Part shown: positions 25,399 to 37,647 of the stretch, one piece after another
Position numbering within the stretch: the stretch's first letter is position 1
How the letters are laid out: the number at the start of each line of letters is the position of its first letter
Origin: Escherichia coli
Lineage (GTDB): Bacteria > Pseudomonadota > Gammaproteobacteria > Enterobacterales > Enterobacteriaceae
DNA length: 64,000 nucleotides
Reading direction: 5' to 3' (one strand)
Assembly: GCF_003334405.1 (NCBI RefSeq)
Contig: NZ_QOWM01000002.1
The notes under the pieces: model-generated
The model's input: the letters and a program-made list of their open reading frames with translations, nothing else
What the model was told of the DNA's origin: nothing
The model's database searches: none
Program-made: the position numbers and the translations under genes

Positions 25399-25992
25399 AT
25401 GACTTCTCTGTATTTAGCTTCCGGTTCTCCGCGTCGTCAGGAGTTACTTGCGCAACTTGGCGTGACCTTTGAACGTATTGTTACGGGCATTGAGGAGCAG
25501 CGTCAGCCGCAGGAGAGCGCGCAGCAGTATGTTGTGCGTCTGGCGCGCGAGAAAGCACGGGCAGGTGTCGCGCAAACGGCGAAGGATCTCCCGGTGCTGG
25601 GTGCGGATACTATCGTTATCCTGAACGGAGAAGTGCTGGAGAAACCGCGCGACGCAGAGCATGCGGCGCAGATGTTGCGCAAATTATCGGGTCAGACCCA
25701 TCAGGTGATGACAGCAGTGGCGTTGGCCGACAGCCAGCACATTCTCGATTGCCTGGTGGTCACCGATGTGACTTTCAGAACGTTAACAGACGAAGACATC
25801 GCGGGCTATGTCGCCAGCGATGAACCGTTAGATAAAGCAGGTGCATACGGTATTCAGGGGCTGGGTGGCTGTTTTGTCAGGAAGATAAATGGCAGCTATC
25901 ACGCCGTAGTCGGCTTACCGCTGGTTGAAACGTATGAATTATTAAGTAATTTTAACGCACTGCATGAGAAAAGGGATAAACATGACGGCTGA
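25399..25992 (+). CDS. yhdE: Maf-family nucleotide pyrophosphatase
   Basis: Starts [22 protein letters not shown] (ORF track begins 20 codons upstream at 25339). Confidence 0.9.
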
Positions 25993-27518: not shown

Positions 27519-30500
27519 GTGAGGCGATTGCCGGGGATTTTACTGCTTACTGGAGCCGCGCTCGTTGTGATCGCTGCCCTGCTGGTTAGCGGCCTGCGTA
27601 TTGCTTTACCGCATCTTGACGCCTGGCGTCCGGAAATCCTCAACAAAATAGAATCCGCGACTGGCATGCCGGTAGAAGCCAGTCAGCTCTCAGCCAGCTG
27701 GCAGAATTTTGGCCCGACGCTTGAAGCACACGACATCCGTGCAGAACTAAAAGATGGCGGCGAATTTTCGGTTAAACGCGTTACTCTGGCGCTGGATGTC
27801 TGGCAGAGCCTGTTACATATGCGCTGGCAGTTTCGCGACCTCACTTTCTGGCAGCTGCGCTTTCGCACCAACACTCCTATCACCAGCGGTGGTAGTGATG
27901 ACAGTCTGGAAGCCAGTCACATCAGCGATCTGTTTCTTCGTCAATTTGACCATTTCGATCTTCGCGACAGTGAAGTCAGTTTCCTGACGCCATCCGGTCA
28001 GCGCGCCGAGCTGGCGATCCCACAACTCACCTGGCTGAACGATCCACGTCGACACCGTGCGGAAGGCCTGGTAAGCCTCTCCAGCCTTACCGGACAGCAC
28101 GGCGTGATGCAGGTGCGCATGGATTTGCGCGATGATGAGGGGTTGTTAAGCAATGGTCGCGTCTGGCTCCAGGCGGATGACATCGACCTGAAGCCGTGGC
28201 TCGGTAAATGGATGCAGGACAATATTGCGCTGGAAACGGCACAGTTCTCCCTTGAAGGCTGGATGACGATCGACAAAGGCGATGTAACCGGCGGTGACGT
28301 CTGGCTGAAACAGGGCGGTGCCAGCTGGTTGGGCGAGAAGCAAACGCATACGCTGTCGGTGGATAATCTGACCGCGCATATTACGCGTGAAAATCCGGGC
28401 TGGCAGTTCTCTATTCCCGATACACGGATCACGATGGACGGCAAACCCTGGCCGAGCGGAGCATTGACGCTGGCCTGGATACCGGAACAGGACGTTGGCG
28501 GCAAAGACAATAAACGCAGTGACGAACTCCGGATTCGCGCCAGTAATCTGGAGCTGGCAGGCCTGGAGGGCATACGCCCGCTGGCCGCGAAACTTTCACC
28601 TGCACTGGGTGATGTTTGGCGCTCCACACAACCGAGCGGCAAGATTAACACTCTGGCGCTGGATATCCCGCTTCAGGCGGCAGACAAGACCCGTTTTCAG
28701 GCATCGTGGAGCGATCTGGCCTGGAAGCAATGGAAATTATTACCGGGTGCGGAACACTTCTCCGGGACGCTTTCCGGCAGCGTTGAAAATGGTTTGCTTA
28801 CCGCGTCGATGAAGCAGGCAAAGATGCCTTACGAAACGGTATTCCGTGCGCCACTAGAAATCGCCGACGGCCAGGCAACTATAAGCTGGCTGAACAATAA
28901 CAAAGGTTTCCAGCTGGATGGGCGTAATATTGACGTTAAAGCCAAAGCCGTCCATGCGCGCGGCGGTTTTCGTTACCTGCAACCTGCTAACGATGAACCC
29001 TGGCTGGGTATTCTGGCTGGCATCAGTACCGATGATGGTTCACAAGCCTGGCGCTATTTCCCGGAAAACTTGATGGGTAAAGACCTGGTTGATTACTTAA
29101 GTGGCGCGATTCAGGGCGGTGAAGCGGATAACGCGACGCTGGTTTATGGTGGCAATCCGCAACTCTTCCCCTATAAACACAACGAAGGTCAGTTTGAAGT
29201 GCTGGTGCCGCTGCGCAACGCGAAGTTTGCCTTCCAGCCGGACTGGCCTGCATTAACTAACCTTGATATTGAACTGGACTTTATTAACGACGGTTTATGG
29301 ATGAAAACCGATGGCGTTAATCTGGGCGGCGTGCGCGCGAGTAATCTTACCGCAGTGATCCCTGACTACTCAAAAGAAAAACTGCTGATTGACGCTGACA
29401 TTAAAGGTCCGGGTAAAGCCGTTGGCCCTTACTTTGATGAGACACCGCTGAAAGATTCTCTGGGTGCGACCCTGCAAGAACTCCAGCTCGACGGCGATGT
29501 GAATGCTCGCTTACATCTTGATATCCCGCTGAACGGCGAACTGGTAACCGCGAAAGGTGAAGTGACGCTGCGTAATAACAGTCTGTTTATCAAACCACTC
29601 GACAGCACCCTGAAAAATTTGAGCGGTAAATTCAGCTTTATCAATAGCGATCTGCAAAGTGAACCACTGACAGCAAGCTGGTTTAATCAGCCGTTGAACG
29701 TGGATTTTTCCACCAAAGAAGGGGCAAAAGCCTACCAGGTAGCGGTAAACCTCAACGGTAACTGGCAACCGGCGAAAACCGGCGTTCTGCCTGAAGCGGT
29801 GAACGAAGCATTGAGTGGCAGCGTGGCGTGGGATGGTAAAGTGGGCATTGATCTGCCTTATCATGCTGGTGCGACCTATAACATAGAGCTGAACGGCGAT
29901 CTAAAGAATGTGAGCAGTCACTTACCTTCACCGTTAGCCAAACCTGCGGGTGAACCACTAGCGGTAAACGTTAAGGTTGATGGCAATCTCAACAGCTTTG
30001 AATTAACCGGACAGGCTGGTGCGGATAATCATTTCAATAGCCGCTGGTTGCTCGGTCAAAAGCTGACGCTCGATCGTGCTATTTGGGCGGCAGACAGTAA
30101 AACGCTCCCGCCGTTGCCGGAACAAAGTGGCGTTGAACTCAATATGCCGCCGATGAATGGTGCCGAGTGGCTGGCCCTGTTCCAGAAAGGCGCTGCGGAG
30201 AGTGTCGGTGGTGCAGCGAGTTTCCCACAACACATAACGTTACGTACGCCTATGTTGTCACTGGGAAATCAGCAATGGAATAACCTGAGTATTGTTTCGC
30301 AACCGACGGCAAATGGCACCCTGGTTGAAGCGCAAGGGCGTGAAATCAACGCCACGCTAGCGATGCGTAATAACGCGCCGTGGCTGGCGAATATCAAATA
30401 TCTTTATTACAACCCGAGCGTGGCGAAAACTCGTGGTGATTCAACGCCGTCATCACCTTTCCCGACAACGGAGCGCATTAACTTCCGTGGCTGGCCGGAC

Positions 30501-31319
30501 GCCCAAATACGATGCACAGAGTGCTGGTTCTGGGGGCAAAAATTCGGTCGCATTGACAGTGATATCACCATTTCTGGCGATACGTTAACGCTGACCAATG
30601 GACTGATTGATACTGGTTTCTCGCGGCTTACTGCCGATGGTGAATGGGTTAATAATCCGGGGAATGAACGTACCTCGCTGAAAGGAAAACTGCGCGGGCA
30701 GAAAATTGATGCCGCCGCAGAATTTTTTGGTGTCACGACGCCCATACGCCAGTCGTCATTTAATGTGGATTACGATTTACACTGGCGCAAAGCACCCTGG
30801 CAGCCAGATGAAGCGACGTTGAATGGCATCATTCATACTCAACTGGGTAAAGGCGAAATTACCGAAATCAATACCGGACATGCCGGGCAATTGCTGCGCT
30901 TATTGAGCGTAGATGCCCTGATGCGTAAGCTGCGTTTTGATTTCAGAGACACTTTTGGCGAAGGGTTCTATTTTGACTCCATTCGCAGCACCGCGTGGAT
31001 TAAAGACGGCGTTATGCACACCGACGACACGCTGGTGGATGGCCTGGAGGCGGATATCGCCATGAAAGGGTCGGTAAATCTGGTACGTCGCGACCTGAAT
31101 ATGGAAGCGGTTGTCGCACCAGAGATTTCTGCGACGGTGGGCGTGGCTGCGGCTTTTGCGGTTAACCCCATTGTTGGCGCGGCAGTGTTTGCCGCCAGTA
31201 AAGTGCTGGGGCCGCTGTGGAGCAAAGTCTCCATTTTGCGCTATCACATTTCGGGTCCGCTGGACGATCCGCAAATCAACGAAGTGTTGCGCCAACCGCG
31301 TAAAGAAAAAGCGCAATGA
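27519..31319 (+). CDS. yhdP: AsmA-like large envelope-spanning protein
   Basis: 1266-aa ORF with a single N-terminal TM helix and long beta-rich periplasmic region. Confidence 0.9.
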   Translation: MRRLPGILLLTGAALVVIAALLVSGLRIALPHLDAWRPEILNKIESATGMPVEASQLSASWQNFGPTLEAHDIRAELKDGGEFSVKRVTLALDVWQSLLHMRWQFRDLTFWQLRFRTNTPITSGGSDDSLEASHISDLFLRQFDHFDLRDSEVSFLTPSGQRAELAIPQLTWLNDPRRHRAEGLVSLSSLTGQHGVMQVRMDLRDDEGLLSNGRVWLQADDIDLKPWLGKWMQDNIALETAQFSLEGWMTIDKGDVTGGDVWLKQGGASWLGEKQTHTLSVDNLTAHITRENPGWQFSIPDTRITMDGKPWPSGALTLAWIPEQDVGGKDNKRSDELRIRASNLELAGLEGIRPLAAKLSPALGDVWRSTQPSGKINTLALDIPLQAADKTRFQASWSDLAWKQWKLLPGAEHFSGTLSGSVENGLLTASMKQAKMPYETVFRAPLEIADGQATISWLNNNKGFQLDGRNIDVKAKAVHARGGFRYLQPANDEPWLGILAGISTDDGSQAWRYFPENLMGKDLVDYLSGAIQGGEADNATLVYGGNPQLFPYKHNEGQFEVLVPLRNAKFAFQPDWPALTNLDIELDFINDGLWMKTDGVNLGGVRASNLTAVIPDYSKEKLLIDADIKGPGKAVGPYFDETPLKDSLGATLQELQLDGDVNARLHLDIPLNGELVTAKGEVTLRNNSLFIKPLDSTLKNLSGKFSFINSDLQSEPLTASWFNQPLNVDFSTKEGAKAYQVAVNLNGNWQPAKTGVLPEAVNEALSGSVAWDGKVGIDLPYHAGATYNIELNGDLKNVSSHLPSPLAKPAGEPLAVNVKVDGNLNSFELTGQAGADNHFNSRWLLGQKLTLDRAIWAADSKTLPPLPEQSGVELNMPPMNGAEWLALFQKGAAESVGGAASFPQHITLRTPMLSLGNQQWNNLSIVSQPTANGTLVEAQGREINATLAMRNNAPWLANIKYLYYNPSVAKTRGDSTPSSPFPTTERINFRGWPDAQIRCTECWFWGQKFGRIDSDITISGDTLTLTNGLIDTGFSRLTADGEWVNNPGNERTSLKGKLRGQKIDAAAEFFGVTTPIRQSSFNVDYDLHWRKAPWQPDEATLNGIIHTQLGKGEITEINTGHAGQLLRLLSVDALMRKLRFDFRDTFGEGFYFDSIRSTAWIKDGVMHTDDTLVDGLEADIAMKGSVNLVRRDLNMEAVVAPEISATVGVAAAFAVNPIVGAAVFAASKVLGPLWSKVSILRYHISGPLDDPQINEVLRQPRKEKAQ

Positions 31320-31334
31320 TTTGACGAGGGCGCG

Positions 31335-31800
31335 TAATTGCCCCAATCTCATAGGATAATCGTTGCCAAAGGCCAACGAGCCAGAACATAACCGTAGGTC
31401 GGATAGGGCGTTCACGCCGCATCCGGCAGCCGTTGCCTGATGCGACGCTGTGCGTCTTATCAGGCCTACAAACGGAACATAACCGTAGGTCGGATAAGGC
31501 GTTTACGCCGCATCCGGCAGCCGTTGCCTGATGCGACGCTGTGCGTCTTATCAGGCCTACAAACGGAACATAACCGTAGGTCGGATAAGGCGTTTACGCC
31601 GCATCCGGCAGCCGTTGCCTGATGCGACGCTGTGCGTCTTATCAGGCCTACAAACGGAACATAACCGTAGGTCGGATAAGGCGTTTACGCCGCATCCGAC
31701 AGCCGTTGCCTGATGCGACGCTGTGCGTCTTATCAGGCCTACAAACCGGAACATAACCGTAGGCTGGATAGGGCGTTCACGCCGCATCCGGCAGCCGTAA
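31335..31800. repeat. REP/BIME cluster: about 5 tandem copies of a ~91-bp unit, each with two REP palindromes
   Basis: Unit GAACATAACCGTAGGTCGGATAAGGCGTTTACGCCGCATCCGGCAGCCGTTGCCTGATGCGACGCTGTGCGTCTTATCAGGCCTACAAACG recurs at 31384, 31475, 31566, 31657 and 31749. Confidence 0.88.
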
Positions 31801-31824
31801 AAAATCCTCTACTGCAGTAACTAA

Positions 31825-33285
<1,461 letters not shown>

Positions 33286-35679: not shown

Positions 35680-37647
35680 ATGGGTATTTTCTCCATTGCT
35701 AACCAACATATTCGCTTTGCGGTAAAACTGGCGACCGCCATTGTACTGGCGCTGTTTGTTGGCTTTCACTTCCAGCTGGAAACGCCACGCTGGGCGGTAC
35801 TGACAGCGGCGATTGTTGCCGCCGGTCCGGCCTTTGCTGCGGGAGGTGAACCGTATTCTGGCGCTATTCGCTATCGTGGCTTTTTGCGCATCATCGGCAC
35901 ATTTATTGGCTGTATTGCCGGACTGGTGATCATCATTGCGATGATCCGCGCACCATTATTGATGATTCTGGTGTGCTGTATCTGGGCCGGTTTTTGTACC
36001 TGGATATCCTCGCTGGTACGAATAGAAAACTCGTATGCGTGGGGGCTGGCCGGTTATACCGCGCTGATCATTGTGATCACCATTCAGCCGGAACCATTGC
36101 TTACGCCGCAGTTTGCCGTCGAACGTTGTAGCGAGATCGTTATCGGTATTGTGTGTGCGATTATGGCGGATTTGCTCTTTTCTCCGCGATCGATCAAACA
36201 AGAAGTGGATCGAGAGCTGGAAAGTTTGCTGGTCGCGCAATATCAATTAATGCAACTCTGTATCAAGCATGGCGATGGTGAAGTTGTCGATAAAGCCTGG
36301 GGCGACCTGGTGCGACGCACCACGGCGCTACAAGGCATGCGCAGCAACCTGAATATGGAATCTTCCCGCTGGGCGCGGGCCAATCGACGTTTAAAAGCGA
36401 TCAATACGCTATCGCTGACGCTGATTACCCAATCCTGCGAAACTTATCTTATTCAGAATACGCGCCCGGAATTGATCACTGATACTTTCCGCGAATTTTT
36501 TGACACGCCGGTAGAAACCGCGCAGGACGTCCACAAGCAGCTCAAACGCCTGCGGAGAGTTATCGCCTGGACCGGGGAACGGGAAACGCCTGTCACCATT
36601 TATAGCTGGGTCGCGGCGGCAACGCGTTATCAGCTTCTCAAGCGCGGCGTTATCAGTAACACAAAAATCAACGCCACCGAAGAAGAGATCCTGCAAGGCG
36701 AACCGGAAGTAAAAGTAGAGTCAGCCGAACGTCATCATGCAATGGTTAACTTCTGGCGAACCACACTTTCCTGCATTCTGGGCACGCTTTTCTGGCTGTG
36801 GACGGGCTGGACTTCCGGCAGTGGTGCAATGGTGATGATTGCGGTAGTGACGTCACTGGCAATGCGTTTGCCGAATCCACGCATGGTGGCGATCGACTTT
36901 ATCTACGGGACGCTGGCCGCGCTGCCGTTAGGGCTGCTCTACTTTTTGGTGATTATCCCTAATACCCAACAGAGCATGTTGCTGCTGTGCATTAGCCTGG
37001 CAGTGCTGGGATTCTTCCTCGGTATAGAAGTACAGAAACGGCGACTGGGCTCGATGGGGGCACTGGCCAGCACCATAAATATTATCGTGCTGGATAACCC
37101 GATGACTTTCCATTTCAGTCAGTTTCTCGACAGCGCATTAGGGCAAATCGTCGGCTGTGTGCTCGCGTTCACCGTTATTTTGCTGGTGCGGGATAAATCG
37201 CGCGACAGGACCGGACGTGTACTGCTTAATCAGTTTGTTTCTGCCGCTGTTTCCGCGATGACTACCAATGTGGCACGTCGTAAAGAGAACCACCTCCCGG
37301 CACTTTATCAGCAGCTGTTTTTGCTGATGAATAAGTTCCCAGGGGATTTGCCGAAATTTCGCCTGGCGCTGACGATGATTATCGCGCACCAGCGCCTGCG
37401 TGATGCACCGATCCCGGTTAACGAGGATTTATCGGCGTTTCACCGACAAATGCGCCGCACAGCAGACCATGTGATATCTGCCCGTAGCGATGATAAACGT
37501 CGTCGGTACTTTGGCCAGTTGCTGGAAGAACTGGAAATCTACCAGGAAAAGCTACGCATCTGGCAAGCGCCACCGCAGGTGACGGAACCGGTAAATCGGC
37601 TGGCGGGGATGCTCCATAAGTATCAACATGCGTTGACCGATAGTTAA
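35680..37647 (+). CDS. aaeB: Aromatic carboxylic acid efflux pump, inner-membrane subunit
   Basis: 655-aa polytopic ORF immediately downstream of aaeA. Confidence 0.9.

Follow-up and report, generated by a model that had tools for sequence, protein, structure and literature searches.

A BIME-2 array between yhdP and tldD of Escherichia coli and its variable unit number

Between the co-directional genes yhdP and tldD of Escherichia coli, a 64,000-nucleotide stretch of contig NZ_QOWM01000002.1 (assembly GCF_003334405.1; this whole stretch is the window below) carries a tandem array of short hairpins, which occupies the 520-bp spacer. We identify it with high confidence as a BIME-2: a bacterial interspersed mosaic element (BIME) made of repetitive extragenic palindromes (REPs), in which y REPs alternate with inverted z2 REPs. 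Knowledge of REP/BIME elements goes back to the 1980s, and both this element and its locus are already described: it is an ordinary BIME-2 and a published gyrase cutting hot spot, of which only the unit count is unusual. That count, 4.5 units or one unit above reference K-12, is the least certain element of our reading. Our analysis yielded no evidence contradicting the identification as BIME-2.

Structure and family of the array

Tandem Repeats Finder reports a single tandem array at 31384-31798, with a period of 91, 4.5 copies, 97% matches, no indels and a score of 772; a separate repeat search places the copies at start-to-start spacings of 91, 91 and 91. A 415-bp tandem array at 97% identity is impossible by chance, and the existence of the array itself is certain. 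By exact matching, the first palindrome of the unit (CCGTAGGTCGGATAAGGCGTTTACGCCGCATCCGGCAG) starts at 31392, 31483, 31574, 31665 and 31757, with 2, 0, 0, 1 and 4 substitutions in copies 1-5, and the second (GCCTGATGCGACGCTGTGCGTCTTATCAGGCCTAC) starts at 31435, 31526, 31617 and 31708, identical in all four copies. The periods of 91, 91, 91 and 92 with few substitutions, listed in the original prediction, are thereby borne out. Its five units hold for the first palindrome, but there are four second palindromes and hence 4.5 units; similarly, its range of 31335-31800 encloses the array but begins with unique spacer outside the repeat (31335-31383).

In terms of REPs, the array comprises five y and four z2 copies in the order y+ z2- y+ z2- y+ z2- y+ z2- y+, with a y REP at both ends. 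Each 91-bp period consists of y(+), the 6-nt linker GCCGTT, z2(-) and the 15-nt linker AAACGGAACATAACC; the last period measures 92 bp because of a 1-nt insertion in the linker after the fourth z2. The individual copies are as follows.

31394..31428, plus strand: y REP copy 1 (Ya), 35 nt, GTAG start, 'old' variant GGATAGGGCGTTCACGCC, hairpin of -18.7 kcal/mol
31435..31469, minus strand: z2 REP copy 1, inverted, GTAG on the minus strand, hairpin of -20.2 kcal/mol
31485..31519, plus strand: y REP copy 2, internal type GGATAAGGCGTTTACGCC
31526..31560, minus strand: z2 REP copy 2
31576..31610, plus strand: y REP copy 3, same sequence as copy 2
31617..31651, minus strand: z2 REP copy 3
31667..31701, plus strand: y REP copy 4, a single G>A change (...CCGACA)
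31708..31742, minus strand: z2 REP copy 4, followed by the linker with the 1-nt insertion (AAACCGG...)
31759..31793, plus strand: y REP copy 5 (Yc), 'old' variant GGCTGGATAGGGCGTTCACGCC, same sequence as the O157:H7 lone y REP

The first y copy is in turn identical to the lone y REP of one B1-like genome that we inspected (ETEC1731). A sequence search of the 64-kb window found no further y or z2 REP elsewhere. Upstream of the first y REP, at 31360-31379, lies a small imperfect palindrome (TCGTTGCCAAAGGCCAACGA) that aligns with the site of an inverted y-like REP in Salmonella arizonae and Citrobacter werkmanii; this palindrome may be what is left of a deleted REP.

Among the REP hallmarks are a conserved GTAG tetranucleotide, located 5' to the foot of the stem, and an AA/GC stem mismatch (PMC3333891, PMC8266576). 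Read from its GTAG end, the y REP is GTAGGTCGGATAAGGCGTTTACGCCGCATCCGGCA, 35 nt long and with the AA/GC stem mismatch; the z2 REP, read in the same way on the opposite strand, is GTAGGCCTGATAAGACGCACAGCGTCGCATCAGGC. GTAG starts every y copy on the plus strand (5/5) and every z2 copy on the minus strand (4/4). The y and z2 REPs of E. coli are described as 35 and 37 nt long, respectively, with the GTAG and a bulge of A12A13 against G26C27 (PMC8266576). A12A13 and G26C27 are found in the internal y copies, A12G13 in the two end copies.

As befits a REP, an imperfect palindrome of 30-40 nt, each of the two can form a stem-loop. Folded singly, y reaches -18.7 kcal/mol (z -3.9) and z2 -20.2 kcal/mol (z -5.9), with 0 of 200 shuffles as good; a neighbouring y/z2 pair forms one long hairpin of -45.3 kcal/mol, and the folding of the whole spacer has z = -10.5. 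The site is extragenic, between the yhdP stop at 31319 and the tldD start at 31840. The repeat is also dispersed: used as a query, the array matches a median of at least 29 places per E. coli genome, with near-identical units at REP325 or naRNA1-6, the BIME-2 between yjdM and yjdN.

REP325 served as well for assigning the types. It is described by its authors as Y + Z2 motifs (PMC4550694), and our assignment is based on the identity of the y and z2 copies to its Y and Z2 units (97% and 94%, respectively), together with lengths of 35 and ~37 nt. Both arrays are tandem, lie between co-directional genes and have the GTAG of y on the sense strand of the upstream gene, with z2 inverted. They differ in period (91 at yhdP-tldD versus 100), in linkers (6 + 15 versus 12 + 17 nt, of unrelated sequence) and in number (4.5 versus 6 units). 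With the REP hallmarks, the match to REP325 Y/Z2 and the listing of the locus as BIME-2 (PMC6379681), a REP/BIME cluster between yhdP and tldD, as originally predicted, is well founded.

A BIME-2 is defined by z2 and y REPs with a short internal linker, in multiple tandem copies that are conserved in locus and variable in number between strains (PMC3333891); its linkers differ in length and sequence (PMC3333891). A short S linker is described within the BIME-2 pair, and s, l or r motifs between pairs. The array fits the definition, with alternating y and z2, tandem copies that are 97% identical and a number that varies between strains; its linkers are 6 and 15 nt long. A BIME-1, in contrast, joins y to z1 through a long L linker carrying a site for IHF, and occurs in single copies (PMC3333891). 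IHF sites are attributed to REP/BIME elements in general (PMC3333891), so that one could take the array for a BIME-1/RIP-type element recruiting IHF; y REPs in an extragenic position are common to both types. However, the partner of y here is the long z2, the linkers are short, the units stand in tandem, and neither z1 nor the L motif is present. Moreover, the IHF consensus WATCAANNNNTTR has 0 matches in 31320-31839, all four matches of the window being elsewhere, and the locus is classed as BIME-2 in PMC6379681. We consider the IHF-recruiting alternative extremely unlikely. It follows that, of the predicted binding of REP/BIME elements to gyrase and IHF, the gyrase part stands at this locus (PMC6379681), whereas IHF, a BIME-1 trait with no consensus here, drops out.

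Allele series, origin and reliability of the unit count

We searched 5426 complete E. coli genomes with allele-specific queries. The locus forms a series of alleles differing by whole units.

0.5 unit (lone y REP): ~3569 genomes, ~66%
1.5 units: 11 genomes (8 + 3 diverged)
2.5 units: 55 genomes
3.5 units: 1720 genomes, ~32%, MG1655 included
4.5 units: 19 genomes

At least 2.5 units are found in ~1850 genomes. A synthetic 5.5-unit query had no one-piece match among the 5426 genomes, and the spread samples held none with 6.5 units or more. In a flank-only query sampled evenly down the ranking (n=60), ~32 spacers measured 155 bp, 26 measured 429 bp, 1 measured 338 bp and 0 measured 520 bp. The variation in copy number between strains that had been anticipated thus amounts to 0.5-4.5 units, and the window allele is the longest and among the rarest, on a K-12-like haplotype.

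The steps are exact. The spacers of K-12 GM4792 (338 bp), MG1655 (429 bp, 3.5 units; NC_000913.3) and the window (520 bp) differ by one in-register 91-bp unit each, and deleting either of the identical internal units of the window, 31483-31573 or 31574-31664, yields the exact MG1655 allele. At the short end, we inspected three genomes, one B1-like (ETEC1731), one O157:H7 and one B2; in each of them the spacer measures 155 bp and contains a lone y REP but not a z2. In E. coli IAI39 (NC_011750.1), an IS1397 of the IS3 family sits inside the loop of the lone y REP at yhdP-tldD, with junctions ...GGGCGTT|TGAACTGC...TTCAGTTCA|GTTCACGCC and GTT present as a 3-bp duplication; REPs are the known specific target of IS1397 insertion (PMC1525189).

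Outside E. coli, REPs are absent from the yhdP-tldD spacer (72-106 bp) of most other Enterobacteriaceae sampled. The spacer contains a lone y REP in E. whittamii and Escherichia sp. E1V33, a single y REP at a different position in Salmonella enterica arizonae, and a y/z2 pair in some species of Citrobacter. The REPs are therefore an insertion into an otherwise conserved spacer of 75-100 bp. Since conserved modules flank the REPs and a lone y REP occurs in other Escherichia, the lone y REP is ancestral in Escherichia; the tandem array arose later, by expansion in some E. coli.

The copies themselves fit such an expansion: the y REPs at the two ends of the array carry the variants of lone y REPs, and the internal ones a different, canonical variant. 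This is the pattern that would be expected if gain and loss of units homogenise the interior. A divergent strain, E. coli SCPM-O-B-8794, has a 2.5-unit array of its own (339 bp, ~10% divergence) with linkers GCCATT and AAGCTGAAATATAACC. Two of its y copies share paired changes from GGCG/CGCC to GGTG/CACC that preserve the stem, and these common changes are evidence for concerted evolution within the array.

Slippage or unequal recombination among identical units may add and remove copies, and so may the REP-associated transposase; both kinds of process explain whole-unit changes equally well. Each y/z2 pair resembles a REPIN, that is, an inverted REP doublet with the GTAG and stem mismatch needed by the E. 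coli TnpA-REP (RAYT) transposase in vitro. The determinants of that enzyme, which cleaves a single-stranded REP at a nearby CT, are a GTAG guide and a bulged stem (PMC3333891, PMC8266576), and the array units carry both in their sequence. The difference from REPIN-RAYT systems is that this is a local tandem array changing by whole units, for which ordinary recombination or slippage could suffice in the place of a transposase.

Is the count of 4.5 units then real? We consider it quite possible, though on the doubtful side, that the array is genuine and its 4.5 units are an assembly error for the usual 3.5. The identical internal units create an exact repeat with a 91-bp offset, whose length we estimate by inspection at ~190 bp; short reads are unable to resolve the number of its copies. 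The flanks of the window differ from MG1655 by 2 single-nucleotide polymorphisms in 14.5 kb, yet the MG1655 spacer is 429 bp. Only 19 of the 5426 genomes have 4.5 units, and all seven K-12/B records among them (TOP10, XL1-Blue, Stbl4, Origami2, BL21(DE3), BL21-RIPL and Rosetta2) fall in the accession range CP080620-CP084529; the sister strains MG1655, JM83, BLR(DE3) and BL21 TaKaRa have 3.5. Other K-12 assemblies have 1.5 (OV2) or 2.5 units (EMG2, MC1061, GM4792), a scatter beyond expectation for a century of laboratory history.

We inspected one of these records, that of TOP10 (NZ_CP080620.1). Its positions 4455000-4500000 hold unrelated K-12 gene fragments (pgaA, nhaA/nhaR, gat genes, 23S and 16S rRNA, insertion sequence pieces, tuf and rhs), most of them flagged 'partial in the middle of a contig'; the last ~50 kb of the record consist of such fragments. 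This suggests a pseudo-chromosome, with leftover contigs appended to a scaffold. The caution about assembly that accompanied the original prediction was apt, in view of the 3.5 units of MG1655 and the confinement of the K-12/B 4.5-unit records to a single accession range.

Other observations speak for a genuine 4.5-unit array. The window lies ~5 mismatches in 24.5 kb from its best records (inferred from the bit score), which makes it a separate source with 4.5 units. The allele also exists in nature: five isolates from five assemblies (China, Laos, Japan and Thailand) carry it on one flank haplotype distinct from K-12. Finally, a change by whole units is the reported behaviour of BIME-2 (PMC3333891). 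In either case, a possible error in the count leaves the identity of the element as BIME-2 unaffected.

A second array also varies in unit number. REP325, with six units in MG1655, has seven in 84 genomes. Among the 40 of these 84 matches that were listed, at least 7 of the 12 natural 4.5-unit isolates are present, together with genomes that have 1.5 (MB46), 2.5 (027_SK3, ABW_S38) and 3.5 units (ECCTRSRTH03) at yhdP-tldD; the K-12/B strains with 4.5 units are not among the 40 of 84 matches listed for the synthetic 7-unit query. Common descent could account for this overlap, as could a lineage whose BIME-2 arrays are unstable. A stronger claim, that the unit number changes fast even among the sublines of one strain and that some lineages expand several BIME-2 arrays together, we regard as unlikely; if true, it would point to lineage-specific bursts of BIME amplification (e.g. 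by RAYT activity) that would tune local supercoiling and the yhdP/tldD expression ratio.

Flanking genes, spacer modules and reading frames in the repeat

The array lies in the 3' untranslated or downstream region of yhdP. The neighbouring features, including the open reading frames (ORFs) within the repeat, are as follows.

27519..31319, plus strand: yhdP, the upstream gene, 1266-aa ORF; identical DNA is annotated yhdP, WP_001253618.1, in RefSeq
31320..31351, plus strand: 32-nt module directly after the yhdP stop, outside the repeat, TTTGACGAGGGCGCGTAATTGCCCCAATCTCA; near-invariant from Citrobacter/Salmonella to Escherichia
31440-31622 and 31531-31713, plus strand: two overlapping spurious 60-aa ORFs
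31557-31787, minus strand: 76-aa ORF
31810..31839, plus strand: ~30-nt module before the tldD start, outside the repeat, CTACTGCAGTAACTAACGAGTAGCAAAAACG
31840..33285, plus strand: tldD, the downstream gene, 481-aa ORF; RefSeq tldD, WP_000055909.1

Both spacer modules are kept from Citrobacter and Salmonella to E. coli, with or without REPs, and the REPs always stand between them. The upstream module contains a GGGCG...GCCCC hairpin, and the downstream one (CTACTGCAG...GAGTAG) overlaps the likely ribosome-binding site of tldD. We detected no sigma-70 consensus in the two modules.

The two 60-aa ORFs had been noted as identical and spurious. Both exist and are spurious; they are 59/60 identical, residue 57 being A in one and T in the other owing to the G>A substitution of y copy 4. 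Although these frames and that of 76 aa are open and start with ATG, we give practically no credence to their encoding small proteins. Since the 91-bp period is not divisible by 3, the frame shifts with each unit; the ORFs lie wholly inside the repeat and change or vanish with the unit number; genomes that have just a lone y REP (~66%) do not contain them, and RefSeq annotates nothing there. None of the three has an NCBIfam match at E<=1.

Further away, window positions 1-351 contain a 5S rRNA (truncated by the window start), a tRNA and a second 5S rRNA, a layout that resembles the last part of an rRNA operon carrying two 5S genes. At 25964 the window has A where MG1655 has G, giving ATG instead of GTG at an upstream in-frame start of rng, and at 35827 it has C for the A of MG1655, in the aaeA/aaeB region. 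No other position in the 14.5 kb of flanks distinguishes the two, so that the window stems from a very close K-12 relative and not from the reference strain itself.

Gyrase cleavage, possible RNA-level roles and significance

Sutormin et al. 2019 (PMC6379681) report that gyrase cleaves the BIME-2 'between tldD and yhdP' at multiple sites in vivo: their Table DS3 lists 35 sites with ciprofloxacin (Cfx), 13 with RifCfx, 3 with Micro and 10 with Oxo. This K-12 element has the same position, flanking genes and y/z2 units as ours, and the window adds one identical 91-bp unit (520 versus 429 bp; 5 y + 4 z2 versus 4 y + 3 z2). The other BIME-2 named as a gyrase cleavage cluster, at sucB-sucC, has fewer sites (6, 4, 0 and 5 under Cfx, RifCfx, Micro and Oxo) and a shorter annotated array, 166 bp as opposed to 307 bp for tldD-yhdP (PMC6379681). 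Overall, y REPs are cut by gyrase more often than z2, and a block of transcription by rifampicin tends to make the gyrase sites in REPs stronger (PMC6379681). Given that sites of the REP class persist or rise without transcription, and that 13 are found here under rifampicin, the array would constitute a fixed gyrase entry point on the chromosome.

At the RNA level, four matches to the Rfam family naRNA4 (RF02564) cover the array on the plus strand, with 71.1-77.3 bits against a gathering score of 59.5.

31397-31466, plus strand: naRNA4 match 1
31488-31557, plus strand: naRNA4 match 2
31579-31648, plus strand: naRNA4 match 3
31670-31739, plus strand: naRNA4 match 4

Each match comprises one y and one z2 hairpin over the full model (1-77). 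As the Rfam model is itself a y hairpin plus a z2 hairpin, a match identifies a BIME-2 unit and not a separate gene or function. One may nevertheless ask whether the units are genes for nucleoid-associated small RNAs of the naRNA4 kind, which with HU would bridge DNA cruciforms and condense the chromosome. Apart from the four sense-strand scores above gathering, the array units have the Y-Z2 two-hairpin design in common with REP325, and HU binding and condensation were reported for naRNA4 (Qian et al. 2015, PMC4550694). Set against this, a 2026 re-examination with overlapping authors finds that deletion or over-expression of REP325/naRNA4 leaves nucleoid size unchanged (bioRxiv 10.64898/2026.03.23.713779), and two thirds of E. 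coli genomes are without these units at yhdP-tldD. We therefore deem a nucleoid-condensing role quite improbable.

A BIME-2 acting on its neighbouring genes is what we propose. Transcribed from yhdP, the array would fold into a stack of stable hairpins, which would block 3'-to-5' decay of the yhdP mRNA and partly stop read-through into tldD, possibly with the assistance of Rho. The model here is REP325, which raises the upstream yjdM mRNA and lowers the downstream yjdN ~8-10-fold, partly via Rho; genome-wide, tandem gene pairs separated by REPs have a raised ratio of upstream to downstream expression (bioRxiv 10.64898/2026.03.23.713779). As array and upstream gene are oriented to each other in the way seen at REP325, protection of the yhdP 3' end and damped read-through into tldD are to be expected. 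The function as terminator plus stabiliser was tested for REP325 only, and is extended to yhdP-tldD by analogy. In the supplement of Harris 2026, tldD occurs in a differential-expression table only, and yhdP is absent.

Several points weigh against this account of the element. A scan of 30800-32100 found no sigma-70 promoter or intrinsic terminator in the spacer: neither strand of 31320-31839 holds an intrinsic terminator, and it is AAAAAA that follows the last y REP on the sense strand. The first REP stands 74 nt from the yhdP stop codon, beyond the 15-nt range cited for REP effects on translation. The array is also dispensable, as ~66% of E. coli genomes have a lone y REP here. As for the allele of the window, 4.5 units on a K-12-like haplotype are backed in RefSeq only by four records of one accession series: the only one-piece matches to the window over 24.5 kb are Stbl4, XL1-Blue, TOP10 and Origami2.

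The finding carries little weight as a discovery, since published work already names this locus as a BIME-2 cleaved by gyrase. In practice it is useful as a warning: the element gives rise to spurious ORFs and to naRNA4 calls from Rfam, and some 'complete' assemblies cannot be relied on for its number of units. At the same time, the alleles of 0.5-4.5 units, among which the lone y REP is clearly ancestral, could be used as a natural dosage series for the effect of BIME-2 length on gyrase recruitment and on the expression of neighbouring genes.

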